Of a DNA stretch of 32,000 nt, positions 1 to 17,589 are shown piece after piece. This DNA comes from Dubosiella newyorkensis. Lineage in GTDB: Bacteria; Bacillota_I; Bacilli_A; Erysipelotrichales; Erysipelotrichaceae. A program made the translations under genes and the position numbers. The stretch spans positions 1-32,000 of the forward strand of contig NZ_MPKA01000064.1 in the NCBI RefSeq assembly GCF_001945605.1, written 5' to 3'. Position 1 is the first letter of the stretch; each line of letters begins with the position of its first letter. The notes beneath the pieces are model-generated. The model searched no databases. It saw only the letters and a list, made by a program, of their open reading frames with translations, and had not been told where the DNA came from.

Positions 1-431
1 CTGTCGGGATCTTTTGGATTGAATTGTCTTTTCAGAAGATTGTGAAGTTTTCGATCATTCCCTTTAGATATGGTCGTTTTTATCTTGTGTTTCAGATATT
101 TCGGTTTGATATTGGCTTCTTTCATGATCGAATAGACATACTTCTGGCATCCTTGGATCCCATGCTTGTGCAGGATCTCTGCGATCTTGGGCGAGCCATA
201 CAGCTGGTGCGAATCGTTGTAGATCTTGACGATTGCTTTTTTTGTTTTTTCCCGTCGGACTTTTGTCTTGGATGGTTTTGATCTTAAATACTTGTAGTAG
301 CCGGAAGGGCTCTTCTCCAATATAGCCAGTATACCCGCTATCGATGCTTTGGGATGTTTCTCTTTGTATTCCTGGACCGATCGATAGAGGAGACGAGCCG
401 TTACTTGCCGAGTATACTGATTGCTTTTTTT
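1..431 (-). CDS. IS3-family transposase OrfB, N-terminal part only, entered by a -1 frameshift from orfA
   Basis: The minus-strand frame offset by -1 from orfA is open from the A7 run (425-431) to position 1. It reads ...LLYRSVQEYKEKHPKASIAGILAILEKSPSGYYKYLRSKPSKTKVRREKTKKAIVKIYNDSHQLYGSPKIAEILHKHGIQGCQKYVYSIMKEANIKPKY...NLLKRQFNPKDPD, a typical IS3 OrfB N-terminus preceding the DDE core. Confidence 0.75.
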
Positions 432-688
432 AATACATTGAGTGCGTCCTGGGTATCTCTGAGCTGCTTTTTAAGATGGGCGATCTCTTTGGCTTCATCG
501 CTGGCATAGTTGCCGGATCCTCTTACGACGACCTGATCGTCATGCTCTTTATAGCTTTTTACCCATCCTCCAATTGTTGTGTCATGGACTCCGAACTGTT
601 GCGCGATCTGGGTGTAGGCAAGGTCTGGATGATCGAGTACATACTGAATCACCTGTTCCTTAAATTCTTTGTCATATTGCTTTGCCAT
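401..688 (-). CDS. IS3-family transposase OrfA (HTH DNA-binding subunit)
   Basis: The 95-aa product reads MAKQYDKEFKEQVIQYVLDH...YTQIAQQFGVHDTTIGGWVK, followed by a leucine-zipper-like C-terminus, which is typical of IS150/IS3 OrfA. An RBS (GAGGAGGAATGAAAA) lies upstream. The gene ends just after the slippery run TTA-AAA-AAA-G. Confidence 0.85.
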   Translation of the reverse strand: MAKQYDKEFKEQVIQYVLDHPDLAYTQIAQQFGVHDTTIGGWVKSYKEHDDQVVVRGSGNYASDEAKEIAHLKKQLRDTQDALNVLKKAISILGK

Positions 689-785
689 TTTTCATTCCTC
701 CTCATTCTGGAATTCAAATTGTTCTTCTTATGACATTCTACCACTTGAATTTTCAGAGGTTTAAGGAATGCACCATTAATACTAA

Positions 786-1295
786 ATCCACATCTGGGGT
801 GATTGCCCTGCATGTCCTGTCAGCCATATTGCAATCTATGACCATGATAATGGCCAGAATGCGGTTTATTTCCTTGGTCAGAATCAGGGACCTGTTCCAG
901 GACGTGTTTCCATTGACCGCATTCCTGTTAATGGAATCATTGGTGTGTTCAGACCGAAACATATCAAAGGTGAAGGTGATGCAAAACCTAAAGCTGCACC
1001 GAAGCCCAAGAATGGTGCTGTACTGAATTCCATTCCAAGTGATTTCCATAGGGAGAACGCAACCTTTACGGTAACTGCCAACAAGATCCATATCCGTCAG
1101 GCTCCTTCCGTATCCGGTAAAGATACGGGTCTGTTTTATGAAAAAGGACAGAGTGTCAACTATGACGGCTATGTTGTCAGGGAGGGATTCACCTGGATCA
1201 GCTGGATCTCTGCTTCCACCCACACCCGCCGCTGGATGGCTTGTGGTGAAAACCAAGGCGGAAGAACAACCGTTCCTTACGGAACCTTCCGCTAG
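786..1295 (+). pseudogene. 5'-truncated peptidoglycan hydrolase/endolysin: the tail of a CHAP-like domain, an Ala/Lys/Pro linker and an SH3b (SH3_5) wall-binding domain
   Basis: The frame is open from 786 and reads IHIWGDCPACPVSHIAIYDHDNGQNAVYFLGQNQG..., consistent with the His-containing end of a CHAP domain. The linker is GEGDAKPKAAPKPK. The SH3b-like C-terminus reads ATFTVTANKIHIRQAPSVSGKDTG...GFTWISWISASTHTRRWMACGE. There is no N-terminal catalytic Cys region and no start/RBS, and the frame abuts the IS3 end. Confidence 0.65.
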
Positions 1296-1307
1296 CTAAA
1301 CGAAAAT

Positions 1308-1360
1308 GCCCATCGGGTAGACTGGCTTTGAAAGCTGGTTTGCCAGATGGGCTGTTTTTT
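1308..1360 (+). terminator. Rho-independent terminator, partly bidirectional, between the lysin remnant and the VOC gene
   Basis: GCCCATC (1308-1314) pairs with GATGGGC (1346-1352) and is followed by TGTTTTTT. The loop is long and could fold further. Confidence 0.5.
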
Positions 1361-1402
1361 CGTAAAAAACAAATTGTATAAATATAACTCTTATGAAGGA
1401 AT

Positions 1403-1843
1403 TTAAAATTCGTCCTTATCAAAGGAAGTTTGATAAGGATTATTTTCCCAAGCACTTATCTCAATTAAGTTATTTTCAAGATCCGTAATTACGCATGTCC
1501 GTTGTCCCCAGAATTCAGTTGTTGGTGGGTAAACAGCATTTGCCCCTTTAGCAACAACTTCTTCATAAGCCTTATCAACTTCTTTAAAACTATTTACAGA
1601 TAAAGATATTTCGAAATGGCCATTAATACCGCAACAGTAATTATATTCATGACATGTTAAAAACTCGAAGCTTTCTCTTTTATAGAGCATAAAAAGAGTG
1701 TGATCTTTTACTAAATAAACAAATCCTGTGTCTTCGCCCTCAGTAATCTCAAAACCTAGGACATCCCTATAGAAGCGAACCATTTTTGGCATATTTTCTA
1801 CCATTAATTGGATTCCATCTAATCTCATCTCTATTAAACTCAT
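1403..1843 (-). CDS. VOC (glyoxalase/bleomycin-resistance/dioxygenase) superfamily protein
   Basis: The 146-aa product has an N-terminus typical of VOC-fold proteins (LDGIQLMVENMPKMVRFYRDVLGFEI) and the tail FWGQRTCVITDLENNLIEI. It is the first gene of the low-GC island. Confidence 0.7.
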   Translation of the reverse strand: MSLIEMRLDGIQLMVENMPKMVRFYRDVLGFEITEGEDTGFVYLVKDHTLFMLYKRESFEFLTCHEYNYCCGINGHFEISLSVNSFKEVDKAYEEVVAKGANAVYPPTTEFWGQRTCVITDLENNLIEISAWENNPYQTSFDKDEF

Positions 1844-1864
1844 CGATTATGATTAAACTGCATC

Positions 1865-2065
1865 TTATTCCTGGTACGAAAGGCAGCCTTGTCTTTCTCC
1901 GGGATAATAGTAGGACCCATAATGGCTAAAATACTGTCGTCCATTACTATCTTTATCATATGGATTCCAGTAAATGCAGCCATCACTACAGTTATGCCCA
2001 CATAATGGCATAATGGGGATAGAAATTCTGACTTCTTTTCTATCCTCGTTTTTAATTTTTTTCAT
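1865..2065 (-). CDS. small Cys/Tyr-rich hypothetical protein (66 aa from the RBS-supported start)
   Basis: The internal ATG at 2065 is preceded by GAAGGAGAAAATT, whereas the track start at 2086 has no RBS. The product reads MKKIKNEDRK...PLCGHNCSDGCIYWNPYDKDSNGRQYFSHYGSYYYPGERQGC. I do not recognise the family. Confidence 0.45.
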   Translation of the reverse strand: MKKIKNEDRKEVRISIPIMPLCGHNCSDGCIYWNPYDKDSNGRQYFSHYGSYYYPGERQGCLSYQE

Positions 2066-2143
2066 AATTTTCTCCTTCGATTTCATATTTCAATTCAACT
2101 ATCTTTTCGAACGATATAATTTATAAAAATAGATATTTTAAGT

Positions 2144-2347
2144 TTACTGTTCTATCAATTGATTTAACGGAAGATAAGCATAATATCCGTCCTCGGTTTT
2201 TAATAAAACTAAATCTGTATTTTCTTTATCCCAGAACCATAAAAATGAAGTCGGTATTGAACCTCGATCAGGTTTAGTTCCAAAGCAACCGTTCTTATAC
2301 CCTACAAACTTGGTTCCTGCTGGAAAATCTGCAATTTTTGAAGGCAT
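2144..2347 (-). CDS. hypothetical ORF, probably the C-terminal part of a longer frame that continues in-frame from the upstream membrane ORF across a single TAA
   Basis: The ATG at 2347 has no RBS. The same frame is open from 2473 down to 2144 and is in phase with ORF 2474..2974. See the finding covering 2144-2974. Confidence 0.35.
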   Translation of the reverse strand: MPSKIADFPAGTKFVGYKNGCFGTKPDRGSIPTSFLWFWDKENTDLVLLKTEDGYYAYLPLNQLIEQ

Positions 2348-2473
2348 ATAATAACATTTAAGAGTTGTTCCGTGGAAAATAGACGTTTCTTTAATTTCAT
2401 TTGCTAAATATCCTGGAATCTCTGATGTTGAAACATATTCTTTTTGATTATCAACAATAAATGATTCTGAAAT

Positions 2474-2974
2474 TTATTGCTGAAAACTCTGCGTTAAAAC
2501 AGTTTTTGTAATAGAGAAACCAAGCAAAAGCACAACAGGTAACAATATTAAAATTAGTAGGTTCCATTTCTTTAGGGAGCTTTTTGCTAAATATACCAAC
2601 CCAATCATCGCAGCAGTAATAATAACCATGGACAGGCATAAAATTGACCAAATCTTTAGTGATCGCAAAGCGAGTCCTGCTTGCGTTATTGAATAAACAG
2701 AAACGGCGGCCACCAAAGTGACTAGAACGCTTACGATTACTTTCACAATAGAACTGATGCCATTTGTATCAATCATCCAAGTTTGATATAAAAATGTTAT
2801 TAAACAAGCTATACTTCCAAAAATCCATAAACATAACCACAAAAAAAATGCGAAATTTTGAAAATCCTCAATAAAACCTATGAGTAATATTAGCGGAATT
2901 CCGATTATGATTAAGAGAGGGGCTTCAAATATTACGAATAAATGTGTTTCTCTGTTATTCATATTTTCTTTCAA
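2474..2974 (-). CDS. polytopic membrane protein (about 5 TM segments), translationally coupled to idi
   Basis: The 166-aa product consists almost entirely of hydrophobic helices. Its start overlaps the idi stop as ATGA (2971-2974). Confidence 0.6.
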   Translation of the reverse strand: MKENMNNRETHLFVIFEAPLLIIIGIPLILLIGFIEDFQNFAFFLWLCLWIFGSIACLITFLYQTWMIDTNGISSIVKVIVSVLVTLVAAVSVYSITQAGLALRSLKIWSILCLSMVIITAAMIGLVYLAKSSLKKWNLLILILLPVVLLLGFSITKTVLTQSFQQ

Positions 2975-3561
2975 TCCATCAATAAATTTGGCGATTGAGT
3001 ATTAAACATTGATTGCTCAACGCATGAAAAGACTTTTTCAAACCAAGCAGTAAATTGCTTTGGATGTTCCTCAATAGTTTGAACTAAAACTTTAAATTCA
3101 ATCCATTCGACCTCAGATACTTCAGCCGGGTTGGGAATCACTTCTAAATTAGTACTATCTACAGGAAGTACAAAAACATAGTCGATTTCATTTTCAGATA
3201 AGTTTCTAAAATCGTGTTGATACCGGATTGTTCCTACTTGCTTGATATGATTAGTAATAAATACACTTGTTTCCAACCAACTCTTATCAAGAAATCTTAT
3301 GCCTAATTCTTCTCTTAACCTTTTAATAATTGTATCGATTAGATTTGTATTTGGATCGGGGTGAGAGCAGCAAGAATTTGACCATAATCCACCTGAATGA
3401 TATTTACTGATTTGGCGTTTTTGGAGAAGAACTGTTTGTTTCTCAGAATCAACGATAAAAACTGAGAACGCTCGATGCAATTGATTATTTTTATGGGCTT
3501 GAATCTTTTCTTCACTCCCAATGATTTCATCATTTTCGTTAACAAGAATAACTTGATCCAT
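2971..3561 (-). CDS. idi: isopentenyl-diphosphate delta-isomerase, type 1 (Nudix-fold)
   Basis: The type-1 IDI active-site pattern is present: metal His residues in AHKNNQLHRAFSVF, WSNSCCSHP (catalytic Cys plus His, compare E. coli WTNSVCGHP), REELGI, and SENEIDYVFV (compare ENEVCPVF, catalytic Glu). Length is 196 aa. Confidence 0.85.
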   Translation of the reverse strand: MDQVILVNENDEIIGSEEKIQAHKNNQLHRAFSVFIVDSEKQTVLLQKRQISKYHSGGLWSNSCCSHPDPNTNLIDTIIKRLREELGIRFLDKSWLETSVFITNHIKQVGTIRYQHDFRNLSENEIDYVFVLPVDSTNLEVIPNPAEVSEVEWIEFKVLVQTIEEHPKQFTAWFEKVFSCVEQSMFNTQSPNLLMD

Positions 3562-3565
3562 ATAA

Positions 3566-4138
3566 TTACCCGAGAAAGTCCGATAAATCTTTTATGAAGC
3601 CTACGTTTAGTCCTTTAACTTGTTGCGACATATTATAGACGTTAGTTGCAAGATATCTTGCAAACGTATACTCTTCTATTTCACAGCATAAATTAATCCA
3701 GTTTCTAAACCAAAATTCAAAATTTTTGGGATCCCTAAACCTCTTAAAGAAACTCGGTTTACAGTCTTTAAAATAATCTTCCCATATCTCTAAATCTGTT
3801 CCGAGTATAGCTAATGCAGCATAATATAAGTCTCCTTTAGGAAATTTATACTGGATATTCCCATACACTTCCTTGAAATGTTGGTCTAGTTTTGACTGGT
3901 ATTCAGTTAATCCATTACGAATAAGTTCTAAAGCTACAGCTAGCTCAATAATTGAGCAAACAAATTCTTTTTGCACTCTGTTAAAAATCTCTTCCTCCGT
4001 TTCAGACGGTGTTGACTGTCCGGTTACCATATTTGCCATAACAAGAATATGCCTTTTCATCCGAATACGATCTAACCGACTATATTTCTCTATCATTTGC
4101 TCATTGTTCATTAGTGTTTCAGTAATTCTCCTTTCCAA
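3566..4138 (-). CDS. hypothetical protein with helix-like composition, no recognisable motif; start uncertain (TTG at 4138 or ATG at 4111)
   Basis: The 190-aa ORF is tightly packed between the prenyltransferase-like gene and idi. No DDxxD, P-loop or metal motif was seen. Confidence 0.5.
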   Translation of the reverse strand: MERRITETLMNNEQMIEKYSRLDRIRMKRHILVMANMVTGQSTPSETEEEIFNRVQKEFVCSIIELAVALELIRNGLTEYQSKLDQHFKEVYGNIQYKFPKGDLYYAALAILGTDLEIWEDYFKDCKPSFFKRFRDPKNFEFWFRNWINLCCEIEEYTFARYLATNVYNMSQQVKGLNVGFIKDLSDFLG

Positions 4139-4145
4139 TTACCAT

Positions 4146-5030
4146 TTACGAAATAATATAATATTTATTTATAGTAATATCTTTAAAATCATTATCTAGC
4201 GAAATCCCTATTGCAAATCCATAAAGAATAAGATCCCTATGTTCGTTTTCGAAAACAGCTAATTGCAACAGTTGCTTTTTAAGGCTGGGAAATATATTTT
4301 CCAATTCTTGGGTAAGAAAGCCATTATCCAGAACCTTAAAATATAATTTATATTTTATATTAGTTGAATAATCTATAGCATGAAGCCACAATTGAATTTT
4401 ATTTCTCTCTATTAGAACTTTTAGCGTATCCTTAATACAACAGAAGTCACTACCTATAAGGTTTATCGAAGCAAGTGTTGACTCTATAGTTAATTCATCT
4501 AGCAATTCGTACTTAGCTGGATCGAAATCATCCATTCCTCTACGTAACAACCATTCAAAGTTTAAGATATTTCCATTTTTTCCATTTTTTAAACCTATCA
4601 TGTGCAAAGAGCCATAATGATTTCGAGAAGGATTTAAGGAGAAAGCAGAAGAGATTTCTTTTAATTCATTAGCCATCTCTACATCGAGTGAGAAGTTGGC
4701 GTTTAGTAGCGAAAACAGTTTATTTATATTAGCGTTTGTTCGGTTTTGCAGAGCAAAGTAAATTCGTTGAGCTTGATTAGAATCAACACAGATACAAATA
4801 CAACGAATCATCTTAAATTCTTGTAAAAAAGAATAGAGAAGATATTGCTCTGGGGTAAGGGTTGCTTTATTTATAATATCTTGGAAATTTGAGGGGTCGT
4901 CTAATGGTTTCAGATATGTTTTCACTATAAATGGACAATCTTGCTTTATATTTATCCCAATAAAATCAATTGTTTCTGAGTAATCGACTGATTTAAACGG
5001 ATCAAATAGTGGTACTCTTCTAAATGACAT
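4146..5030 (-). CDS. candidate ABBA-fold (aromatic/peptide) prenyltransferase-like protein
   Basis: The 294-aa product shows ten short alternating-hydrophobic strand-like segments in five pairs separated by helical stretches. The pairs are FIGINIK/FIVKTYLKP, IRCICICVD/RIYFALQ, LHMIGLK/ILNFEWLL, LWLHAIDY/KYKLYFKV and LILYGFAIGISL/ITINKYYI. Size and layout fit a PT barrel, and a dedicated idi lies in the same operon. The start is coupled as GGAGGGATTAAATG to the kinase stop. No HMM or structure check was run. Confidence 0.5.
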   Translation of the reverse strand: MSFRRVPLFDPFKSVDYSETIDFIGINIKQDCPFIVKTYLKPLDDPSNFQDIINKATLTPEQYLLYSFLQEFKMIRCICICVDSNQAQRIYFALQNRTNANINKLFSLLNANFSLDVEMANELKEISSAFSLNPSRNHYGSLHMIGLKNGKNGNILNFEWLLRRGMDDFDPAKYELLDELTIESTLASINLIGSDFCCIKDTLKVLIERNKIQLWLHAIDYSTNIKYKLYFKVLDNGFLTQELENIFPSLKKQLLQLAVFENEHRDLILYGFAIGISLDNDFKDITINKYYIIS

Positions 5031-6059
5031 TTAATCCCTCCAAGCAAAAAATGAATCTACTTGCGTATACCCTTTCGCCAGAAAATCGATCATTAATGAT
5101 TTATCGGAAATATGCAAACCTTCTCTTATCAATCCTGCTATAAATCTCGATAGATAAATCCCGTTTAAACATTTTGATAAGATATTTATGTTTTCTTTTT
5201 CTAAAGTATTTAAACGATAATATTTTGAATATGATGAAATATAGGCGTTCCTGTATTGTTCCGCCATTTCAACAGAGCGTACTTCTCCAATGAAATCCTG
5301 CTGGTATCGTGAGCTATACCAGGTTATAAGAAAGTCAAGTAAGCACGGACATCTACCAGATAAATTAAAGTCTATAATTCTAAATGTACCCATAGAGTCC
5401 ATAAGAACATTACTTGTCAATCCTAAATCTCCATGGACGGCAGAGCAAGGAAGTTTATGAATCACTTCTATTATCGTTTTAATTGACTTTTTATGGACTT
5501 TTCTTAGAGGTTGCCATACTTCATTCGAAGTGTTAATCCCAGACCAGATTTGATCAAATTCAGTTTTTCCGTTATATAAAGCTCTCAGTGCGAAATTCAA
5601 GGGTAGTTTTCTATGAAAAGATTTTCCAAAAGAATGTGACAACCCAATCAATCTTCCAATAGCAGTAATATTTATCAAATTTATACTTTTTATGTCTCTT
5701 CCAACGTATTCTTGTAAAGAGACAAAAGCCCTAGCATTCTCATATAGATGATGTAAATCTGTCTCATAGCAGTATTTACCATCAGAATTAATTAATGGAA
5801 AAAATCTTGCTGTCGGGACTCCCTTACTACGAAGATATTCAGAAAACTCGATTTGGTCTTCATTTTGTTGGCGAGAAAAAGTATGATCACTAATCAATTT
5901 CATAACGAAATGCTCATTATCGATTGTTTCGATGAAATAAACGAATGAAAATTTAGGCGGCTCCCAAAAATCATCTATTACTGAGATTCTTGTGATAATC
6001 TTAATATCAAAATATTCGCTGAATATCTTAGCAACAGGAATTGTCTCTATCACAGACAT
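5031..6059 (-). CDS. APH/choline-kinase-fold phosphotransferase (protein-kinase-like superfamily)
   Basis: The Brenner motif HGDLGLTSNVLMD is followed by FRIIDFNLSG, the metal-binding D of the DFG-equivalent. Length is 342 aa. The 5' end overlaps the rSAM gene by 32 nt. Confidence 0.7.
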   Translation of the reverse strand: MSVIETIPVAKIFSEYFDIKIITRISVIDDFWEPPKFSFVYFIETIDNEHFVMKLISDHTFSRQQNEDQIEFSEYLRSKGVPTARFFPLINSDGKYCYETDLHHLYENARAFVSLQEYVGRDIKSINLINITAIGRLIGLSHSFGKSFHRKLPLNFALRALYNGKTEFDQIWSGINTSNEVWQPLRKVHKKSIKTIIEVIHKLPCSAVHGDLGLTSNVLMDSMGTFRIIDFNLSGRCPCLLDFLITWYSSRYQQDFIGEVRSVEMAEQYRNAYISSYSKYYRLNTLEKENINILSKCLNGIYLSRFIAGLIREGLHISDKSLMIDFLAKGYTQVDSFFAWRD

Positions 6060-7203
6060 GACTGCAAATACCTTTTAAAGGGGAGTCGGTACTCTCGATA
6101 GTCCCAGCGATTTCCTCAATTGCTTTTAGAACAAGTCGATCGTTTTCAGAAAAGACTTTTTTTAATTTAAGCCTATTGAATTGTATTTTTGCCGATGCCA
6201 AAATACATTCCCTATATGATAAGCACAGACCTAGATTAACCAAATGTGTACATCCAGATGTAGCTAGGTTCGCAGTATAACAATTAGGGCATAGGAAAAA
6301 AAATCTGCATCCTACACAAGGATTATTAGACGTCAAATCTAATTTGGAACAATCATAATTCTGAAATTTACTTGACTCATCACCAAGTGAAACTGGGGCG
6401 AATCCCTGACAGGGAAATATATTTCCTTCAGTATCAAAGCATTTTGTTAATTCCCCTGCAGCACAAAACCGATGTTTATTTTTTAAATGCGCAAACCAAA
6501 GACGAAGGTCAAAATTAAGTAAAGTGCAAAGATCTAAACTCGGATTATCAGTATAAAATTTGACAAGCTTTTCGAGTTCCCCGTTTAAAATTTCTCCAAC
6601 CTCTTCAAAGTTCCATTCAATACCAGTTGGAAGAGTAGCATCTGCAACGAATCCTAATTTATGTAAATGGATTACTCCTTCCGCCAAATGTGGAAGAGTG
6701 GCTTTTGAAAGGGTTAATTTAGCCTGACATTTTCCCGGCCATGTCCTTAAAAAGAAGTCCTTATCAATATGTCTGTAGCTTCCATCTCCGGACAATAGCG
6801 GTCTATTTAAGTTATGCATAGCCTCCGTACCATCGAGGCTGAGAGAAACAATATATTTCTCTTTTCTTTCTTGAAGCCATTCCTGAACTGGTCCGTGGAC
6901 TAATGTTCCATTGGTGGTAGTTTCAAAATAGGTATTCCGATCCCCGTAAACATCTTCGATGTAGGAATCGATTTTTTTTAGGAGAGCAAAGTTTGCGAAG
7001 GGCTCTCCACCAAAAACTTCGATCAGTGCTGTCTCGCCAGGAGGTATCTCCCCATAAAAACTGTCAATAATTTCTTTCGCGGTCTCCCAACTCATCTTTT
7101 TTTTATTCTTAAAGTGCTCGTAACAGTAGAGGCAGTTTAGGTTACACTCTTCGGTTAATAAGAGCATGATTTTTTTTTGATCTTTATCCATAATCTTTTC
7201 CAT
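6028..7203 (-). CDS. radical SAM enzyme with a C-terminal SPASM domain (anSME-like peptide-modifying maturase)
   Basis: The CNLNCLYC (CxxxCxxC) motif starts at residue 20, followed by GGEPF. The SPASM region reads FCAAGELTKCFDTEGNIFPC ... CVGCRFFFLCPNCY, and there is an extra Cys-rich tail GICSHVCDRDNSCC. There is no space for an N-terminal RRE/PqqD-like domain. Confidence 0.85.
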   Translation of the reverse strand: MEKIMDKDQKKIMLLLTEECNLNCLYCYEHFKNKKKMSWETAKEIIDSFYGEIPPGETALIEVFGGEPFANFALLKKIDSYIEDVYGDRNTYFETTTNGTLVHGPVQEWLQERKEKYIVSLSLDGTEAMHNLNRPLLSGDGSYRHIDKDFFLRTWPGKCQAKLTLSKATLPHLAEGVIHLHKLGFVADATLPTGIEWNFEEVGEILNGELEKLVKFYTDNPSLDLCTLLNFDLRLWFAHLKNKHRFCAAGELTKCFDTEGNIFPCQGFAPVSLGDESSKFQNYDCSKLDLTSNNPCVGCRFFFLCPNCYTANLATSGCTHLVNLGLCLSYRECILASAKIQFNRLKLKKVFSENDRLVLKAIEEIAGTIESTDSPLKGICSHVCDRDNSCC

Positions 7204-7215
7204 TCTAATAACATA

Positions 7216-7243
7216 AAGTGAAGAGAAATGTTTCTCCTCACTT
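7216..7243 (-). promoter_or_regulatory. intercistronic stem-loop between the precursor ORF and the rSAM gene (attenuator or mRNA-stabilising hairpin)
   Basis: The minus-strand RNA AAGUGAGGAGAAA-CA-UUUCUCUUCACUU forms a stem of about 11-13 bp with one G-U pair, followed by UAUGUUAUU. It lies 9 nt after the peptide stop and 12 nt before the rSAM ATG. Confidence 0.55.
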
Positions 7244-7252
7244 ATTTAGTAA

Positions 7253-7411
7253 TTAATCCCATCCACAGGATTTCTTATGAGCTGTGCAACTGCAGCTATA
7301 AGCAGTAAAACCTGGGTCATACGAATATTCAGTTTTATTCTGCGTTTTTTCTGCTTTCTGAATCATTGATTCAAGAGTTGCATAGTCTTCACTTGAAAAA
7401 TGAAAACTCAT
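7253..7411 (-). CDS. 52-aa candidate RiPP precursor peptide, absent from the supplied ORF track because it is under 60 aa
   Basis: An ATG at 7411 is preceded by AAAGGAGAAGAACAGT, and the stop TAA is at 7253-7255. My translation is MSFHFSSEDYATLESMIQKAEKTQNKTEYSYDPGFTAYSCSCTAHKKSCGWD. It lies immediately upstream of, and co-oriented with, the rSAM/SPASM gene. Confidence 0.7.
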   Translation of the reverse strand: MSFHFSSEDYATLESMIQKAEKTQNKTEYSYDPGFTAYSCSCTAHKKSCGWD

Positions 7412-7605
7412 ACTGTTCTTCTCCTTTCTTGTTTTCTAAGTTTGCAAAAGCAATTAAGCAAAAGTCATTCTATGCTTAACTACTTTGAAGCCCACAAACT
7501 ATTCACTTGCTAAGTAACATTCATGAGCTTTATTCAAAGGAAGAATTTAAATAATCCTCCCTATTGAACGACAACACTATTACCATTTACGGCAGATTTA
7601 TTTAG

Positions 7606-7815
7606 CTATCGAACCAAGCGTATGATTGCGGTCATTAACCACTTAAGGATAATTAGGCAAGTAGCTACATAACCTACTGCAAATCCAATCGCCGATCGAG
7701 CGATAAGTTTTCCGGTTCCCGGACCTTCGAGAGCGGGAATTCTACCCACCATAAACTTATTGCCTACGTAAAAGGCAATAGCAGAATAGACGAGTATTAC
7801 CAAAAGTCCTTCCAT
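7606..7815 (-). CDS. small two-TM membrane protein, hypothetical
   Basis: The 69-aa product has two hydrophobic helices. An RBS (GGAGAAAGAGAA) lies directly upstream of the ATG. Confidence 0.5.
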   Translation of the reverse strand: MEGLLVILVYSAIAFYVGNKFMVGRIPALEGPGTGKLIARSAIGFAVGYVATCLIILKWLMTAIIRLVR

Positions 7816-7862
7816 GATTCTCTTTCTCCTATCCTCTATATCCTCTAGAAAAACGAATTTCG

Positions 7863-8246
7863 CTATTCGATTCCCGTTTGCTCAGTAAACTCTGAGTAGG
7901 GAATAGATTCCTCAGCATCAAATAATTTGTTCGCGAACTCAAATTGCTTTGAAGGGCTGTCAATCAAATCTTCTTCAACATAAAGAAATTCATCGCCCGT
8001 TTTCGTATACACAATCGTTGAATTTCCTAGTCTGCCGTAGTTCACTACGATATTGCTCGGTTGCATAGAAGTATGCATAATTTTTGAAAAAGCAAAGTAA
8101 TCCTCAATGTTATCGACTGGTTTTTCTACAACTAAGTAATCTGTTTCATTTTTGCTGCTTGTTATTGAAACCTCGTCGGTAGTTGAGCAACCGAGAATGC
8201 TCAGGCTCATGCCTATCAGTAGGAGGAGCCGAAGTGTCCTTTTCAT
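7863..8246 (-). CDS. lipoprotein, hypothetical
   Basis: The signal peptide carries a lipobox: MKRTLRLLLLIGMSLSILGC-STT. Confidence 0.65.
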   Translation of the reverse strand: MKRTLRLLLLIGMSLSILGCSTTDEVSITSSKNETDYLVVEKPVDNIEDYFAFSKIMHTSMQPSNIVVNYGRLGNSTIVYTKTGDEFLYVEEDLIDSPSKQFEFANKLFDAEESIPYSEFTEQTGIE

Positions 8247-8261
8247 TTTTTGCTCCTTCTA

Positions 8262-8591
8262 TCACTTGACTAAGTTTCCAAGCTCTTGAATTTTTTTAAT
8301 CAAGCTTTTTTTAGGTATTGAAGCAGTGAAACCAGAGAGTTGCATTTCGCCTGCACCAACATTTCCTATTCCTACCTGCACCCAGCCGTAAATATTGAGT
8401 GCATGATCAACTTGATCAAACGTAAGAAACTGCATGGCAGTTAGCGCACCTGTTCCTTTTTTATAAACGGGGTTCTTATCAAGGGGACTCTCAATTTGTT
8501 TAAATCCATTACTAAGACAAAAATTATTGATGATTTGTGCGATGGTTTCTGGGTCTTTACTGGTAGTGTATGAGAACTTACTTCTAGACAT
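8262..8591 (-). CDS. hypothetical soluble protein (109 aa)
   Basis: The start overlaps the stop of the upstream membrane gene (ATGTCTAG), which indicates translational coupling. I do not recognise the family. Confidence 0.5.
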   Translation of the reverse strand: MSRSKFSYTTSKDPETIAQIINNFCLSNGFKQIESPLDKNPVYKKGTGALTAMQFLTFDQVDHALNIYGWVQVGIGNVGAGEMQLSGFTASIPKKSLIKKIQELGNLVK

Positions 8592-9012
8592 TACTTGCTC
8601 CTTTGGTCATTTTTAGCCCCACTAAGCCTAATATTGCAGTAATAACATCAATATAAATTCCATTTTCAAAGCCTTCGCAGACCCTTAGGAACAGATACTG
8701 TATGTCTGAATCTACATTCCCTCTCATCATAGGTGGAACAATTGCGATGATTAGGAGTTCAACTATTAAACCCACACCAATTCCTGAAAGCTTCCCTGGT
8801 CTATTTCCTTGAGAAATAGCAAAGAGTATATATAGGGCTTGAGCAACAACTATTAAGCCGACGACTGCAAACCAAATCGCATCTCCTGACGACATACCGT
8901 GCCAACCATCTAGGTTTCCTGACACTGAACCAAAATTCATCAGCAGGGAGGCGAGTATAGAACCAGTTAAACCAAGATAACCAATTAAAGCCAATATGTT
9001 TACTTTTTTCAT
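8584..9012 (-). CDS. four-TM membrane protein, hypothetical (start moved to the RBS-supported ATG)
   Basis: The ATG at 9012 is preceded by GGAAGGGAGAAAA and the product begins MKKVNILALIGYLGLTG. The longer track ORF extending to 9093 adds a basic, non-membrane extension without better support. Confidence 0.55.
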   Translation of the reverse strand: MKKVNILALIGYLGLTGSILASLLMNFGSVSGNLDGWHGMSSGDAIWFAVVGLIVVAQALYILFAISQGNRPGKLSGIGVGLIVELLIIAIVPPMMRGNVDSDIQYLFLRVCEGFENGIYIDVITAILGLVGLKMTKGASNV

Positions 9013-9189
9013 TTTTCTCCCTTCCTTTAGAATCCCCGACCATTCCCTCCTTTCTTTAGGTCTTTTTTTGTAGACTATTTTGAACATTACCAATGAACTT
9101 ATTTAAAGTTTGAAATAAACACAATTAAGGGATTAAAACCCGAATTATCAACTTTTTATTGACAAATTGCTGGACTAGTAAGATAATGA

Positions 9190-9244
9190 AAAGCAAAATA
9201 AAAGATTCCCGAAAAGTCTACTTTAAGGGAATCCTTCTTTTTTT
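9190..9244 (-). terminator. bidirectional stem-loop terminator at the 3' end of the recombinase gene
   Basis: GATTCCC (9204-9210) pairs with GGGAATC (9227-9233). T-runs follow on both strands: TTCTTTTTTT on the plus strand and TTTTATTTTGCTTT on the minus strand. Confidence 0.5.
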
Positions 9245-9817
9245 ATACTTATAATAGGTGTTTTTGCTAATGCTAAAGTGTCGGCAAAGATCTTTAACAG
9301 TGACCTCGTGGGATTCACATTTTTTAACCCACTCGTCAAATTCTTGAGGTAGTTCGAGCTCTGGTCTGCCAAATTTTACTCCACGTGCTTTTGCGGCAGC
9401 TATCCCCTCAGCTTGCCGTTTTTTTATTGCTTCTCTTTCCGTCTGGGCAACAAAAGAAAGAATCTGAAGGACAAGGTCAGCAATGAATGTGCCCATCAGA
9501 TTCTTTTCGGTTCTTGTATCGAGTAACGGCATATCAACCACTACCATATCCACGCCATTTTCTTTAGTCAGGACCCGCCATTCCTTTTGGATCTCCTCAT
9601 AGTTCCTGCCAAGCCTATCAATGCTATAGACATAAACCACATCACCTGGCTTCAACTTTTTGATAAGTGCTTGATAGTTTGGGCGATTAAAGTCCTTTCC
9701 TGATTGTTTATCAATAAACAGATGGTCAGACTCAATCCCGAGTTCGCTCAGAGCATTAACTTGTCTTGCTTCGTTTTGATCCATGCTACTAACACGGATA
9801 TAGCCATAAATTGCCAT
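9218..9817 (-). CDS. small serine recombinase (resolvase/invertase family) with a C-terminal HTH
   Basis: MAIYGYIRVSSMDQNEARQ contains the catalytic Ser motif, followed by SIDRLGRN and a C-terminal HTH (VTVKDLCRHFSISKNTYYKY). The start at 9817 has the strong RBS AGAGGAGGAATTT. The upstream 44 codons in the track ORF are unsupported. Confidence 0.85.
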   Translation of the reverse strand: MAIYGYIRVSSMDQNEARQVNALSELGIESDHLFIDKQSGKDFNRPNYQALIKKLKPGDVVYVYSIDRLGRNYEEIQKEWRVLTKENGVDMVVVDMPLLDTRTEKNLMGTFIADLVLQILSFVAQTEREAIKKRQAEGIAAAKARGVKFGRPELELPQEFDEWVKKCESHEVTVKDLCRHFSISKNTYYKYKKRRIPLK

Positions 9818-9992
9818 AAATTCCTCCTCTTTGGTTGTGATTGGTTTTAACTCATTCATCACAACTATTCGAGTAAGAATTCTGCTTTCTGTTAGATAGG
9901 AATCTGAGTGGATTTTCCTAAGAATAAGATCCTTCCAGAAAAGGGTCATGGCCGTATAATAGTCTGACAGATCTTTTGTTTTGGCTTGTTAG

Positions 9993-10307
9993 TCAAATAG
10001 CCATTTTTGCTGCTTTGTTCTGATTGTCCAGAAGTACTAATTTAGTGATTTCATCAGTATTTATAACAGGTTTCAGATATCCGCCCATAATCAAGTCAAT
10101 CACTGGTAGCGGGTTTTCATAATCACCAACCCAGTCCCCGTAGCTAATCTGCCAAAAACCATCTTTACTGTAGCTCATCATCAGTTCGTCATTGAAGTCG
10201 ACAACGACTTCGCCCTCTCTCAGGGTCGGATAGACCTCATCTGGTTCAGTGAGGATCTTTTCTGGGTTCCAGCGCTTTACGCCTTCCAGGATTGTATTTA
10301 GTTCCAT
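9993..10307 (-). CDS. hypothetical small acidic protein (104 aa from ATG 10307)
   Basis: The ORF has an AAAGGAC RBS-like sequence upstream. Its composition is reminiscent of small immunity-type proteins, but I recognise no motif. Confidence 0.45.
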   Translation of the reverse strand: MELNTILEGVKRWNPEKILTEPDEVYPTLREGEVVVDFNDELMMSYSKDGFWQISYGDWVGDYENPLPVIDLIMGGYLKPVINTDEITKLVLLDNQNKAAKMAI

Positions 10308-10383
10308 TGTTTGTCCTTTCTTAGGACCAGTCCGTATCTTGCTTAAGCAATTCAATCATACAGGAATTCAGAAGTTTTACAAG

Positions 10384-10640
10384 AGCAATAATCGACGAAT
10401 GTACTTTACCTAAAGCATATTTCAGTCATTTATTCTTCATAAAAAAGTCACAAATCATTCATCTTAAAGAGAAATACCGGAGAGAAGTGCAAGTCTAAAA
10501 CAGGATCATCTCTTATCCAGAAACCAAATTTCGGAATAGATTAGAAGCCGACCAAACTGGAAGGAAATCGTCCAGCATTGTGAGTTCCATGGAAGTTAGC
10601 ATCTCTCATAAAAATCCGTTTGATGCAAAAAATCTTACTG
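10384..10640 (+). pseudogene. possible decayed AraC-type HTH remnant (multiple stops and frame changes)
   Basis: Frame fragments resemble the two AraC C-terminal HTH signatures: LPKAYFSHLF.IKK (compare s.sYlsrlFKK) and, in another frame, EIVQHCEFHGS*HLS*KSV (compare eIA..vGF.d.sYFsr.FKk). This is a by-eye resemblance only. Confidence 0.25.
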
Positions 10641-10851
10641 GACATTTCCTTGATGCATTTCTACAGATGTTAACGCAAAATTTACAGTCTTGACGCAAAC
10701 TTCCGATTTTGTTGAGAGGGCATTTTCAGCCCTTAATACTGCTTGATTTACACTATTTTTTAGAGTTAGCAAATACCCGATACCTATCGCAGATTTAGCC
10801 TATTTTTTATGCGTTTATTGGTATCGGTTAGACGTCTCGGTTTTCAAAGCG

Positions 10852-11994
10852 ATGGAAGATGAGCAAGTCGTCAAGATCCTTTTATGCTGTTCTTCCGGGT
10901 TCACGACTTCCTATTTTGCTCAACGCTTGAATGAAGCCGCAAAGCAGCTAAGCCTAGACTATGAATTCGATGCCACTTCGTATTTTGATCTTTACTCAAG
11001 AGCGGAAGGATATGACATGATCTTGATCGCTCCGCAGATCGGTTACATGCTAAAGAAATTTAAAAAGGCGTTGCCAAAAAAACGGGTGTGTCAGATCCCG
11101 ACTTCTTTGTTCGCCTCGTACAATACGGGGGCCACATTTTCCTTTATCCAAGAGCAGCTCAAGGAATATCGCCAACAAAGTCAAGAAAAGAACTCATTGT
11201 TCAGCGACTGCAGGCTAGATTGTCCTATGCATCAAGAAACGGTGCTTGCGATCGCCGAATTGTATGATGGCAATTCGATCCAAGTCTATATCCATATTTA
11301 TAAAAAGGGCGAAGTCCTTTTTGATGATGTCGTCATCAAACCAAACTTTCAAAAAGTCGTCTTGTTCGATTTGATCCAATACGCTCTTGGGCAAGTCGAG
11401 GGTGTCGATTTGATCGTGTTGGCCGTTCCTGGCATCATCAAAGAAGGGACGATCATCGATTTCCCGCAGCGAGGTCTTAAAAATTATCCGATGAAGAAGC
11501 GGATCGAAGAGCGATTCCATATCAAAACGACTTTGATCAACAACACCAACGCAATCGCGCTCGGTTTTGCCTACCTGCATCCGGAGCATGAGATCGTGAC
11601 CTACCATTCGCAACCATATGGAAGAGCGATGGGCGGTCAAGGAACTGTCGTTCACCAAAATCTGATCAACGGCATAAGCGGGATCAGCGGCGAGATCAAA
11701 TTCTTTTTGCCACGCATGCAGTTTTCAAATGAGCTCGCTCGTCTTGCTAAAACCGATTTTGGGACCCAGGAAATCGTGACCAACGCCTTGCTTCCGACGA
11801 TTTCTTTGATCGGGCCCGATATTATCGTTTTAAGAGCGCCATTGATCAACGACTTAGAGGAATTGAAGAAGCGGATCGCCACCTTTATCCCATGTGACGC
11901 GATGCCTGAAATCGTCATGATCGAGGATATCAAGCCTTTTTTATTCCGCGGGATCGCCGAATACGCGTGCTCCTTTCTTCAAGAAACGGAATGA
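10852..11994 (+). CDS. fusion protein: an N-terminal PTS EIIB domain (lactose/cellobiose family) joined to a C-terminal degenerate ROK-like domain
   Basis: The N-terminus VKILLCCSSGFTTSYFAQRL...DMILIAPQIGYMLKKF matches the cellobiose-type EIIB phospho-Cys loop. The C-terminus carries ROK-like blocks LAVPGIIKEGTIIDFP...LINNTNAIALGFAY and GISGISGEIKFF. However, the N-terminal DxGxT phosphate-1 motif, the ND of NDAN, the GH of AGEIGH and the CxCGxxGC zinc motif are all altered or missing. No clear RBS was seen. Confidence 0.6.
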   Translation: MEDEQVVKILLCCSSGFTTSYFAQRLNEAAKQLSLDYEFDATSYFDLYSRAEGYDMILIAPQIGYMLKKFKKALPKKRVCQIPTSLFASYNTGATFSFIQEQLKEYRQQSQEKNSLFSDCRLDCPMHQETVLAIAELYDGNSIQVYIHIYKKGEVLFDDVVIKPNFQKVVLFDLIQYALGQVEGVDLIVLAVPGIIKEGTIIDFPQRGLKNYPMKKRIEERFHIKTTLINNTNAIALGFAYLHPEHEIVTYHSQPYGRAMGGQGTVVHQNLINGISGISGEIKFFLPRMQFSNELARLAKTDFGTQEIVTNALLPTISLIGPDIIVLRAPLINDLEELKKRIATFIPCDAMPEIVMIEDIKPFLFRGIAEYACSFLQETE

Positions 11995-12656
11995 AGTCTC
12001 GACTTTTTCATCGCTTCATAGCCGATCCAGATCGTCCACATATAGGCGCATGTCTTAGGAATCATAAGCATCCCGATCATTGGGATCTTTTCCGCCCATA
12101 AGACGACCGGAATATAAAATGCGAAACTCAATACAATCGTAAGAGCCATCCATCGAAACGCGCGATCGCGCGTTTCTTTTACTTTCCAAGCGAATAGAAG
12201 GATGATCACCGCTCCCAAAAGCGCAAACGGCACGTTTCGAATGATTCCCCAGGCGATTGGCGGATGGGCGTTGAGCCATTCATTTTGAGGAAACATGCAA
12301 AGAACGATCCGAACTAGCGCCAAGCCATAAACGAGCGCGTTTAGTTTTGGCGTCTTTTTCATTCCATACCGTTTTTTCCAGACTTCAAACAACAAAACAT
12401 AAAAGATCGTCATCGTGATCGATGTGATCCATTTTCCAACACCTAAAGCCGCAGTATAGTTTTCTAGGCCCGTGGTGCATAAGGCGTACGCTCTCGGGAT
12501 CAAATGGAACGCGTCTCCAGCACCCAAAACGATTGCCATCCAGCCAAACAAACGATATTGCGAGCGTGGACGACTTCTTTTGATCATCAAGATCCCGATC
12601 ACCGTCACGAACGCGAGATACAAAATATCAAAACTAGTTTCGAAGACTGCTCTCAT
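11979..12656 (-). CDS. polytopic membrane protein, hypothetical (225 aa)
   Basis: The ATG at 12656 overlaps the upstream stop as ATGA, with an AAAGGAG RBS. The longer track ORF extending to 12785 overlaps the upstream gene and is rejected. Confidence 0.6.
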   Translation of the reverse strand: MRAVFETSFDILYLAFVTVIGILMIKRSRPRSQYRLFGWMAIVLGAGDAFHLIPRAYALCTTGLENYTAALGVGKWITSITMTIFYVLLFEVWKKRYGMKKTPKLNALVYGLALVRIVLCMFPQNEWLNAHPPIAWGIIRNVPFALLGAVIILLFAWKVKETRDRAFRWMALTIVLSFAFYIPVVLWAEKIPMIGMLMIPKTCAYMWTIWIGYEAMKKSRLHSVS

Positions 12657-13663: not shown

Positions 13664-13860
13664 AGTTCCTCCCAAAGTGAACATTGTTCATTATAGACTC
13701 TTTTGTTTCTTTGTCAAACTGGACACAAAAGTGATTTCTCTTTATTCATTGAATGATTAAATTTTTATTCGTTGCTTATATTTTATATTATTGCTTATTT
13801 TAAATATATATTATAATATTAATTCAACCGTTATTCACGGATCCCTATCACAGGATAGAA

Positions 13861-13930
13861 AGGAGGCCCCTATGAAACAAAACATCACAAACTGGTCGAA
13901 TGTATTCATGGTGTCTCCTTCTTTTTTTTC
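13861..13930 (+). promoter_or_regulatory. leader region of the ABC operon: a strong SD, a short upstream ORF start and a T8 tract
   Basis: AGGAGG (13861-13866) is followed 5 nt later by an ATG at 13872 (MKQNITNWSNVFMVSPSFF...). A CTCCTTC segment complementary to the SD region precedes T8 (13922-13929). All of this lies upstream of the real ABC start at 13993. Confidence 0.4.
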
Positions 13931-13992
13931 GATAAGAGCGTTTCTTCATGAATCCATTGGCCCCCCTATTGTAAATAGAAAGGTCAAAAGGA

Positions 13993-17245: not shown

Positions 17246-17282
17246 GATAACTTAAAGCATTTTCATCAAAAAGAATCCATTT

Positions 17283-17345
17283 AAACGCTCCCCTTAAAAC
17301 GGATAAGCGAAATTTCTAAATAGAAGTTTTGTAAGGGGAGCGTTT
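17283..17345 (+). terminator. putative terminator after the ABC operon (long-loop hairpin)
   Basis: AAACGCTCCCCTTA (17283-17296) pairs with TAAGGGGAGCGTTT (17332-17345) and is followed by TTAG. The stem is strong, but the loop is about 35 nt and the T-tract is short. Confidence 0.45.
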
Positions 17346-17554
17346 TAGCATATTGTCGAGTTGTATAACGATCAAAATTTCTGTTTAAAAAAACAAATAA
17401 AATTTACTCGATTCCCATAGACTACGCCTTCCGCTTTTTAATTTGAACTTATCTCCAACATTTTAAGGTTAAATGACGGAAATAGTTTCTTAACAATCTG
17501 CAATTATTTTTAGGTATCCTGATAGAAAATAGGAAATTTTTCCGTAAATCGAAC

Positions 17555-17584
17555 ACAAAAAAAGCTTCCCGTTTGCAGGAAGCT
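17555..17584 (-). terminator. Rho-independent terminator of the murF-ddl/alr/acyltransferase operon
   Basis: The minus strand reads AGCTTCC-TGCAAACG-GGAAGCT followed by TTTTTTTG, and lies 6 nt after the acyltransferase stop. Confidence 0.7.
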
Positions 17585-17589
17585 AAAGA

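Follow-up and report, generated by a model that had tools for sequence, protein, structure and literature searches.

The window analysed here, a 32,000-nt stretch of Dubosiella newyorkensis (NZ_MPKA01000064.1) to which all coordinates refer unless another locus is named, carries a co-oriented set of seven open reading frames (ORFs), all listed on the minus strand between 2474 and 7411. We consider it rather probable that this set constitutes a biosynthetic cluster for a peptide that is made by the ribosome and modified after translation (RiPP), whose product would be crosslinked, prenylated and phosphorylated by the pathway proposed below. The RiPP family to which the cluster belongs is probably undescribed. 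The features of the set are the following.

7253-7411, minus strand: precursor peptide gene; 52 aa, rich in Cys, Trp and Tyr.
7216-7243, minus strand: stem-loop of 12 bp in the spacer between the precursor and radical-SAM genes; terminator-like match.
6028-7203, minus strand: radical S-adenosylmethionine (radical-SAM)/SPASM enzyme; 391 aa, with Pfam Radical_SAM and Fer4_12 matches.
5031-6059, minus strand: APH/eukaryote-like kinase-fold phosphotransferase; 342 aa, Pfam APH.
4146-5030, minus strand: ABBA (PT-barrel) prenyltransferase-like protein, assigned by fold model; 294 aa, unannotated family.
3566-4138, minus strand: orphan protein; 190 aa from TTG; public gene calls begin at the ATG at 4111 and give 181 aa.
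2971-3561, minus strand: type-1 isopentenyl-diphosphate isomerase (IDI); 196 aa, Nudix fold, NCBIfam equivalog cut-offs passed.
2474-2974, minus strand: membrane protein with five predicted transmembrane segments; 166 aa from TTG, or 162 aa from the ATG at 2962.

The close packing of these genes had been reported in a preliminary description of the DNA, and most of it could be read again in the sequence: all seven ORFs were found on the minus strand over the span given there, the radical-SAM and kinase genes overlap by 32 nt, the kinase gene is joined to that of the 294-aa protein by TAA-ATG, and a gap of 4 nt lies between the orphan and IDI genes. The ATGA junction claimed for the IDI and membrane-protein genes was a minor error, as the two genes share a TTGA overlap or, if the ATG start is used, are set apart by 8 nt. 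In public annotation the precursor and the prenyltransferase-like protein are each named 'hypothetical protein', and exact look-up returned 'MULTISPECIES Erysipelotrichaceae' for proteins of the island, but Dubosiella newyorkensis for the alanine racemase and the MurF-Ddl fusion of the flank.

The arrangement recurs far beyond this genome. At least 23 contigs carry the exact 294-aa protein in identical synteny, and annotation of all retrieved loci with hidden Markov models showed that the order small ORF, radical-SAM gene, kinase gene, prenyltransferase-like gene is kept in approximately 40 diverged metagenome loci (numbered with the prefix L in the following), the first diverged loci found with this four-gene order being L007/8, L009, L090, L091 and L093. 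A metagenome scan with the radical-SAM alignment added approximately 50 loci, many of them with record names labelled human gut. The same order together with a conserved small ORF in approximately 40 independent loci puts the arrangement beyond chance. The seven-gene pathway originally put forward thus has to be narrowed: precursor, radical-SAM enzyme, kinase and prenyltransferase-like protein are conserved and IDI is a frequent accessory, but the orphan and membrane-protein genes are, as judged by sequence comparison, lineage-specific.

The precursor gene is preceded by the ribosome-binding site AAAGGAG and encodes a leader with a conserved L...E helix motif, followed by the putative core YSYDPGFTAYSCSCTAHKKSCGWD. 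The preliminary description had made its case depend on a conserved small ORF upstream of the radical-SAM gene in homologous loci, and such an ORF is indeed found there: 26 distinct precursors, each directly upstream of a radical-SAM gene, were readily alignable and share the nearly invariant C-terminal core Y…C.C[ST]….SC.W[D/H]. The last residue, Asp or His, separates D-type cores (…YSCSCTAHK[K/M]SC[G/S]WD), to which the precursor of the window belongs, from H-type cores (…FSC[K/R/S]CSGPA[Q/R]SCxWH). The core hardly varies, whereas the prenyltransferase-like proteins are only ~31-36% and the radical-SAM enzymes 50-63% identical to those of the window. A variable leader, a conserved core and co-located tailoring enzymes, as generally found in RiPP clusters, are thus combined here across taxa, and the near-invariance of the core, even between diverged clusters, hints at a target that is itself specific and conserved.

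A hairpin follows the precursor gene, at the position of the stem-loop listed above (-16.4 kcal/mol, z = -3.98). Hairpins of unrelated sequence occupy the same position between the precursor and radical-SAM genes in six diverged loci, with z-scores of -4.4 to -5.5 in L009, L090, L091, L098 and L107 and of -2.57 in L116. Structure kept without conservation of sequence points to a selected hairpin by which the proportion of precursor mRNA to enzyme mRNA would be set, and the element is probably an attenuator or serves to stabilise the mRNA. Hairpins after the precursor gene are common in bacteriocin operons.

The radical-SAM enzyme scored 39.1 bits with the Pfam Radical_SAM model (cut-off 29.5). 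C20, C24 and C27 of its CX3CX2C motif are invariant in six diverged homologues, as are ten further cysteines (C226, C247, C255, C265, C296, C299, C305, C308, C327 and C333). The enzyme thereby shows the CX3CX2C motif plus the 7-8 SPASM cysteines of radical-SAM/SPASM peptide maturases, a pattern that fits a SAM cluster and predicted SPASM auxiliary clusters; the full SPASM domain assigned to it earlier is borne out by this cysteine set. PapB (NF047865) was the best match in NCBIfam, covering residues 11-320 including the SPASM cysteines with 144.3 bits; given the equivalog cut-off of 340 bits, the enzyme is related to the PapB family but is not a member of it. The best sequence match in the PDB was 5WGG (8.9e-15), which we take to be the thioether-forming enzyme CteB; on this reading the two nearest models, PapB (a ranthipeptide maturase) and 5WGG, both represent maturases that make thioethers. 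Since the alignments begin at residue 10-11, the enzyme has no N-terminal extension with a RiPP recognition element (RRE). At its C-terminus, a Cys/His-rich tail of ~25 aa (window 6028-6090, ...SPLKGICSHVCDRDNSCC) is present in the enzymes of four D-type loci, and the two H-type enzymes among the six aligned stop short of it. A scan of viral contigs with the radical-SAM alignment returned one unrelated radical-SAM protein only.

Relatives of this enzyme with 41-46% identity occur next to other Cys-rich precursors (…RWDCSISCYC…), without a kinase or prenyltransferase; in L126 (6563-6969), two tandem precursors ending in …RWDCSISCYC… accompany a relative of ~46% identity in what looks like a simpler cousin cassette. 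The occurrence of such relatives without the two partners marks the kinase-prenyltransferase pair as an add-on to a Cys-directed maturase lineage.

The 294-aa protein had no match in Pfam or NCBIfam (at E<1) nor in PADLOC or PHROGs, and a word-indexed search found just five full-length relatives, with ~33% identity. A profile search of 1.84 billion representatives recovered 131 relatives, mostly of ~290 aa. A first AlphaFold (AF2) model, made from 6 sequences, had five ββαα units and yielded the same prenyltransferase matches, albeit weakly; owing to its low confidence (pLDDT 60) it was replaced by a model from a 108-sequence alignment, which reached pLDDT 86 and pTM 0.87, likewise with five ββαα units. 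When the latter model was compared with the PDB by Foldseek, the top 50 matches were all ABBA aromatic prenyltransferases (probability 1.00, E down to 4e-7), including AtaPT, AmbP3, NphB/Orf2, AmbP1, EpzP, PirF, CdpNPT, FamD1, NotF, DMATS1 and FunA. The predicted model fits the ten-stranded antiparallel barrel of five repeats that characterises the ABBA fold. With this five-fold model, these fold matches and no competing family match, the barrel earlier proposed for the protein gained considerable support.

At the level of sequence the family stands apart from the curated prenyltransferase families, the window protein belonging neither to Pfam Trp_DMAT or PTase_Orf2 nor to NCBIfam DMATS. Ten of the 108 relatives matched Trp_DMAT below threshold (best E 9e-4), which made it the only recurrent Pfam family, and one of the 108 matched the NCBIfam DMATS model TIGR03429; searches of PDB sequences with the two family profiles, A1 and A2, found no prenyltransferase. 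Conservation within the family falls mostly on the strands, with i/i+2 spacing (G25, N27, K37, Y39, R89, R163, W215, D220, K226, K228, Y230, G271, N288 and Y290). K37, Y39, R89, R163, K226, K228, Y230, N288 and Y290 are 78-100% conserved, Y39 being invariant. In known barrels of this kind a Lys/Arg/Tyr lining binds the diphosphate, and by analogy the conserved Lys/Arg/Tyr/Asn set is a candidate diphosphate-binding lining of the lumen. Distant members of the family (P0060, P0110, P0132) lie in other genomic contexts; the family as a whole is therefore not tied to the cassette with radical-SAM enzyme and kinase. A fold search of BFVD gave no meaningful viral relative of the prenyltransferase. 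A scan of GTDB species representatives with alignment A1, used as a degenerate pattern, gave no true relative among the 600 matches listed and was uninformative, because the proteins are present by exact sequence in NCBI Dubosiella genomes.

The kinase passed the Pfam APH cut-off (25.8 versus 23.2). At least 95% of 32 distinct kinases, the most distant having 19% identity, retain D211, N217 and I229-D230-F231, so that the HGDxxxxN and IDF motifs noted previously proved to be conserved catalytic residues, corresponding to the HxDxxxxN loop and DF(G)-type Asp of APH/protein-kinase-like enzymes. Their retention argues, on sequence grounds, for an active-type kinase under selection. Among NCBIfam models the kinase is weakly similar to SrkA-type Ser/Thr kinase, its best single match, and to homoserine kinase; a sequence search of the PDB gave no match. 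Kinase and prenyltransferase genes are adjacent in all cassette loci, mostly overlapping, and are fused into one 635-aa protein in P0084/L091 (2279-4186).

The identity of the type-1 IDI, regarded as unambiguous from the outset, holds: the protein exceeded both equivalog cut-offs (136.5 versus 127 for NF002995; 112.6 versus 105.8 for TIGR02150), and alignment with a hand-entered sequence of E. coli Idi gave 30% identity, with the H..H, NSxC-x-HP and ENE motifs matched. It thus has the catalytic Cys and Glu and the metal-binding His and Glu of this enzyme. Within the flanks fetched, an IDI gene was found in approximately 8 of 18 distinct types of cluster with kinase and prenyltransferase (window, L009, L090, L091, L092, L106, where it lies upstream, L109 and L118/119), and in L141-144 one lies beside a divergent prenyltransferase-like gene. 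Sister clusters (L116, L144, L092) encode flavoproteins whose best full-length model is the geranylgeranyl-reductase (GGR) family (E ~1e-31, under the cut-off). The argument that a private IDI implies local use of dimethylallyl diphosphate (DMAPP) is strengthened by this recurrence and by the GGR-family flavoproteins, and with three independent isoprenoid-related partners, namely the prenyltransferase fold, IDI and the GGR-like proteins, prenyl chemistry is the best reading of the cassette.

The sister clusters contain, in addition, fusions of a prenyltransferase domain with one of the peptidase-U32 type, O2-independent hydroxylases being among the members of the latter family, and extra radical-SAM enzymes (P0040/L092, 3184-5031; L116, 10050-11906 and 11911-12804; L144, 8110-10462). 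Together with the cassette they form a wider superfamily of clusters that combine radical-SAM and prenyl genes, on metagenomic contigs many of which are labelled human gut.

Upstream of the operon we found a DNA segment with the properties of an invertible promoter, within what appears to be a mobile island. Neither the inverton nor the prophage context described below formed part of the preliminary description. The features concerned are the following.

9070-9221, no strand: inverton of 152 bp, bounded by the inverted repeats GTAGACTATT and AAAAGTCTAC.
9159-9187, plus strand: promoter-like site TTGACA-17-GATAAT; near-consensus sigma-70, 11/12 match.
9218-9817, minus strand: small serine recombinase (invertase); Pfam Resolvase 6e-32, 199 aa when begun at the ATG at 9817.
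7606-9093, minus strand: four small ORFs, all in one orientation, that separate the inverton from the precursor gene; no family matches.
791-10847, no strand: extent of the mobile island, from blastn comparison with L002 (99.9% identity).

The inverton lies directly downstream of the invertase gene, the ORF of which reaches 9949 in the window orientation and bears the public name 'recombinase family protein'. In L001 the segment is flipped relative to the window, between flanks that are 99.97% identical. Inverted repeats, an enclosed promoter, both orientations and an adjacent invertase are thus all in place. In the window the promoter points away from the operon, which is presumably the OFF state. 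Invertase-inverton modules were found upstream of the cassette in three diverged cluster families, represented by the window, L091 and L098. The module of L091 (706-876) has an invertase 60% identical to that of the window, 22-nt perfect repeats and a promoter with a 12/12 match, and its inverton ends 24 nt from the annotated start of the precursor gene. That of L098 (4339-4499) has an 11/12 promoter, and among near-identical metagenome contigs of this family the orientation in L098 and L104 is opposite to that in L096, L097, L100 and L113. At the level of DNA, control of the cassette by phase variation accordingly has good support. The four small ORFs that follow the inverton in the window encode a 169-aa protein with multiple transmembrane segments, a 109-aa protein, a 127-aa lipoprotein (ILGC lipobox) and a 69-aa protein with two transmembrane segments; they could be immunity or surface proteins under the same switch.

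The island has a G+C content of 31-37%, versus 40-48% in the flanks. In L002, which on naming evidence is read as a contig of Ileibacterium valens, it abuts intact genes for a GH25-SH3_5 endolysin, a holin and tail(-fibre) proteins (13736-18023) on one side and the riboflavin operon on the other. In the window, by contrast, the lysin is cut to a 116-aa SH3_5 remnant (945-1295) beside an IS3 insertion sequence (401-688). Intact prophage genes in one genome and a remnant in the other mark the cluster as cargo at the end of a decayed prophage, and the 99.9% identity to an Ileibacterium-assigned contig suggests a recent transfer between genera as prophage cargo. Other cluster types also adjoin serine or tyrosine recombinases. 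A megablast search of the island against phages and plasmids gave no match, and an Rfam scan of positions 1-12000 detected no riboswitch and no RNA family.

From this gene content we infer the following chemistry. The 52-aa precursor would be bound via its conserved helical leader, and the RRE-less radical-SAM/SPASM enzyme would crosslink the core through three invariant Cys, thioether bridges of the sacti/ranthipeptide type being the most likely crosslink. The APH-type kinase and the ABBA prenyltransferase would act as a pair, because their genes are always adjacent, translationally coupled and, in one lineage, fused. With DMAPP as donor, the prenyltransferase may attach a short prenyl group to an invariant residue, either the penultimate Trp or the first Tyr of the core, and the kinase may phosphorylate an invariant hydroxyl, which could be that of the Tyr, of the Ser/Thr after C-x-C or of the Ser before the last Cys. 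The type-1 IDI of the cluster would lift the supply of DMAPP, and the upstream invertible promoter, flipped by the adjacent serine invertase, probably switches expression on and off.

Within the same RiPP cluster the kinase could have another task, namely to help make the prenyl donor, for example from prenol, isoprenol or a prenyl monophosphate as phosphate acceptor; it would then supply the prenyltransferase to which it is fused or adjacent, and IDI would keep the C5 pool in equilibrium. The constant adjacency of kinase and prenyltransferase and their fusion in P0084/L091 would agree with this, as would the co-occurrence of IDI, which points to donor supply, and the presence of small-molecule kinases such as homoserine kinase among the best family matches; choline kinase, an APH-fold relative, phosphorylates isoprenol in engineered pathways. 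We nevertheless regard this role as unlikely, since a second kinase that would lead on to the diphosphate is missing, the kinase occurs also where IDI is absent, and its best single match is a Ser/Thr protein kinase model. Moreover, when RiPP enzymes are fused, they usually work on the peptide one after the other. A phosphorylated peptide would, in turn, be an intermediate if the cluster were lanthipeptide-like, the kinase phosphorylating Ser/Thr next to Cys, the barrel serving as a phosphate-binding lyase or cyclase and IDI being incidental cargo. The invariant S-C and C-[ST] dipeptides do resemble Ser/Thr and Cys substrates, class V lanthipeptides employ kinases of the APH type, and the conserved Lys-rich interior of the barrel could bind phosphate. 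Yet none of the 108 prenyltransferase-family members showed similarity to HopA1, LanL-lyase or LanC, the fold matches were exclusively prenyltransferases, and IDI in approximately 8 of 18 cluster types as well as the GGR-like reductases would go unexplained without isoprenoid chemistry, which makes the lanthipeptide-like route quite improbable.

The carriage of the island as prophage cargo also brings to mind an anti-phage or nucleotide-modifying system, with a viperin-like radical-SAM enzyme, a kinase and a Nudix protein, in which the small ORF would be irrelevant. Some defence systems do work with kinase and Nudix partners, and the N-terminal core of the radical-SAM enzyme is weakly similar to pVip models (37 bits). 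This similarity, however, spans only the generic radical-SAM core (residues 12-131); a much better fit is given by the full SPASM domain and the peptide-maturase models, the Nudix protein is a genuine IDI, no other island protein matches PADLOC, and the small ORF has a near-invariant Cys-rich core in 26 variants. A defence function therefore has, in our view, next to no likelihood.

Several observations weigh against the crosslinked, prenylated and phosphorylated peptide that we favour. As regards crosslinking, the radical-SAM enzyme scores far under the PapB cut-off, so that the crosslink may be of another kind. As regards prenylation, the TM-scores of the 294-aa model to solved prenyltransferases are moderate (0.42-0.63), and the window protein had no sequence-level match to any prenyltransferase family in Pfam, in NCBIfam or in searches of the prenyltransferase profiles against PDB sequences; its conserved residues are candidates for the lumen by strand spacing rather than by model coordinates, and approximately half of the cluster types are without IDI in the fetched flanks. 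The kinase could have a substrate other than the peptide, and the modified residues are not assignable from sequence. No protease, exporter or recognisable leader-binding domain was found in the island; the lack of a protease and of an ABC exporter among the island proteins had been pointed out before, and the ABC pair at 13993-17245 belongs to the chromosomal flank, outside the island. As regards expression, the DNA immediately upstream of the precursor gene yielded no good promoter, and four ORFs and weak hairpins separate the inverton from the operon in the window. Because of these intervening ORFs, read-through from the inverton into the operon is an assumption in this genome.

A bolder proposal, about which we are doubtful, would see in the kinase and the ABBA prenyltransferase an obligate module, fused in some lineages, that installs a new peptide modification. 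Its substrate would be a peptide bridged by the radical-SAM enzyme, with a core that hardly differs between genera, and its product a mobile, phase-variable signal or toxin of gut Bacillota, spread by prophages and with a conserved target. Prenylation that depends on, or is attached via, the phosphorylated residue, i.e. a phospho-prenyl linkage, is one possibility for such a module. Release of the product might need no exporter of its own and could occur, for instance, when phage lyse the cell.

The orphan had no match in Pfam, NCBIfam, PADLOC or PHROGs and just two homologues among 5.8 billion sequences; the proteins that take its place in L091 and L093 were compared with it, and no homology was found. 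The membrane protein has five hydrophobic segments in a hydropathy scan and a sub-threshold match to 5TMR-LYT; a part in immunity or export would be a guess. Inside the island on the 3' side of the operon (1403-2347) lie a 67-aa ORF, a 73-aa Cys/Tyr-rich ORF (…CGHNCSDGCIYWNPYDKDSNG…) and a gene for a glyoxalase/VOC-family protein. In the chromosomal flank (19759-22176), a gene beside that of alanine racemase encodes an 805-aa protein in which MurF (Mur ligase domains) and D-Ala-D-Ala ligase are joined, an unusual fusion among cell-wall enzymes.

If the proposed pathway holds true, the cluster would stand for a RiPP family that joins radical-SAM crosslinking, ABBA prenylation and phosphorylation, and a so far unannotated clade of approximately 130 prenyltransferase-like protein clusters would be added to the toolbox for peptide lipidation. 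As precursor and prenyltransferase-like protein are labelled 'hypothetical protein', genome-mining pipelines may miss the family. Control by an inverton would be an unusual case of phase-variable natural-product biosynthesis, and carriage on a prophage a possible route for the spread of the cluster between genera. Dubosiella newyorkensis is a cultivable commensal of the mouse gut, which opens the product and its role to direct tests.

With ranthipeptides and sactipeptides (PapB/freyrasin, CteB/SCIFF) the cluster shares a short Cys-rich precursor directly upstream of a radical-SAM/SPASM maturase, and like the PapB model the enzyme of the window is without a long N-terminal RRE extension. The core motif differs, however, from the CxxxD repeats of PapA, ending in Asp in one type and in His in the other, and the ranthi- and sactipeptide clusters known to us or found in the literature lack the obligatory pair of kinase and prenyltransferase and the frequent IDI seen here. 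Class III-V lanthipeptide synthetases (LxmK/LxmY) likewise combine a kinase-fold enzyme with core Ser/Thr beside Cys; here, in contrast, the candidate thioether former is a radical-SAM enzyme, and neither a LanL/HopA1 lyase nor a LanC cyclase was found among the island proteins and the 108 prenyltransferase-family members.

The inverton resembles those of other gut bacteria in being a short, repeat-bounded promoter segment (~130 bp) with an adjacent invertase and with both orientations in public assemblies, and differs from those known to us in lying upstream of a RiPP cassette. We know of no described RiPP cluster under inverton control, although no literature search was aimed at one. The preliminary description had been aware of no family that combines a radical-SAM/SPASM enzyme, an ABBA prenyltransferase, a kinase and IDI, and none was found by us in the full-text literature, the coverage of which leaves out many subscription papers; searches of the same literature with core-peptide strings and the host name returned no description of the cassette.

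ComX of Bacillus, processed by ComQ, is also a small precursor with a Trp near its C-terminus and is prenylated into a signalling peptide; the conserved core and the accessory-gene status of the present cluster would fit a signal, as with ComX. Unlike our cluster, the ComX system is not known to have a radical-SAM crosslink, kinase or IDI. ComQ has the all-alpha isoprenoid-synthase fold rather than an ABBA barrel, according to the passages available from a 2026 review (PMC13290415). In those passages, peptide prenyltransferases comprise only eukaryotic enzymes, cyanobactin/ABBA enzymes (including NctPC) and trans-IDS-like enzymes (IDS, isoprenyl diphosphate synthase), and the available part of a 2025 paper covers the prenylation of cyanobactins, lanthipeptides and lasso peptides (PMC12715784). 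Neither set of passages mentions a radical-SAM enzyme or a kinase as partner of a peptide prenyltransferase (PMC13290415; PMC12715784).

The closest counterparts of the 294-aa protein are the cyanobactin prenyltransferases PagF, LynF, TruF, PirF, KgpF and LimF and the lanthipeptide prenyltransferase MppC, ABBA barrels of ~290-300 aa that act on ribosomal peptides with C5 or C10 donors; PirF was among the fold matches of the window protein, with a TM-score of 0.49. MppC, as described in the available part of the 2025 paper, prenylates Trp in a thioether-bridged peptide while the leader is still attached (PMC12715784). Unlike the cyanobactin enzymes, the window protein matches no prenyltransferase model at the sequence level, with the qualification that the presence of a LynF/TruF/PatF model in NCBIfam is unconfirmed. 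The hosts differ as well, being gut Bacillota and not cyanobacteria, and so do the partners, which are a radical-SAM enzyme and a kinase instead of cyanobactin proteases or LanM. What is probably new here, then, is the combination of RiPP enzymes and the prenyltransferase clade, with the inverton and the prophage carriage as unexpected extras.

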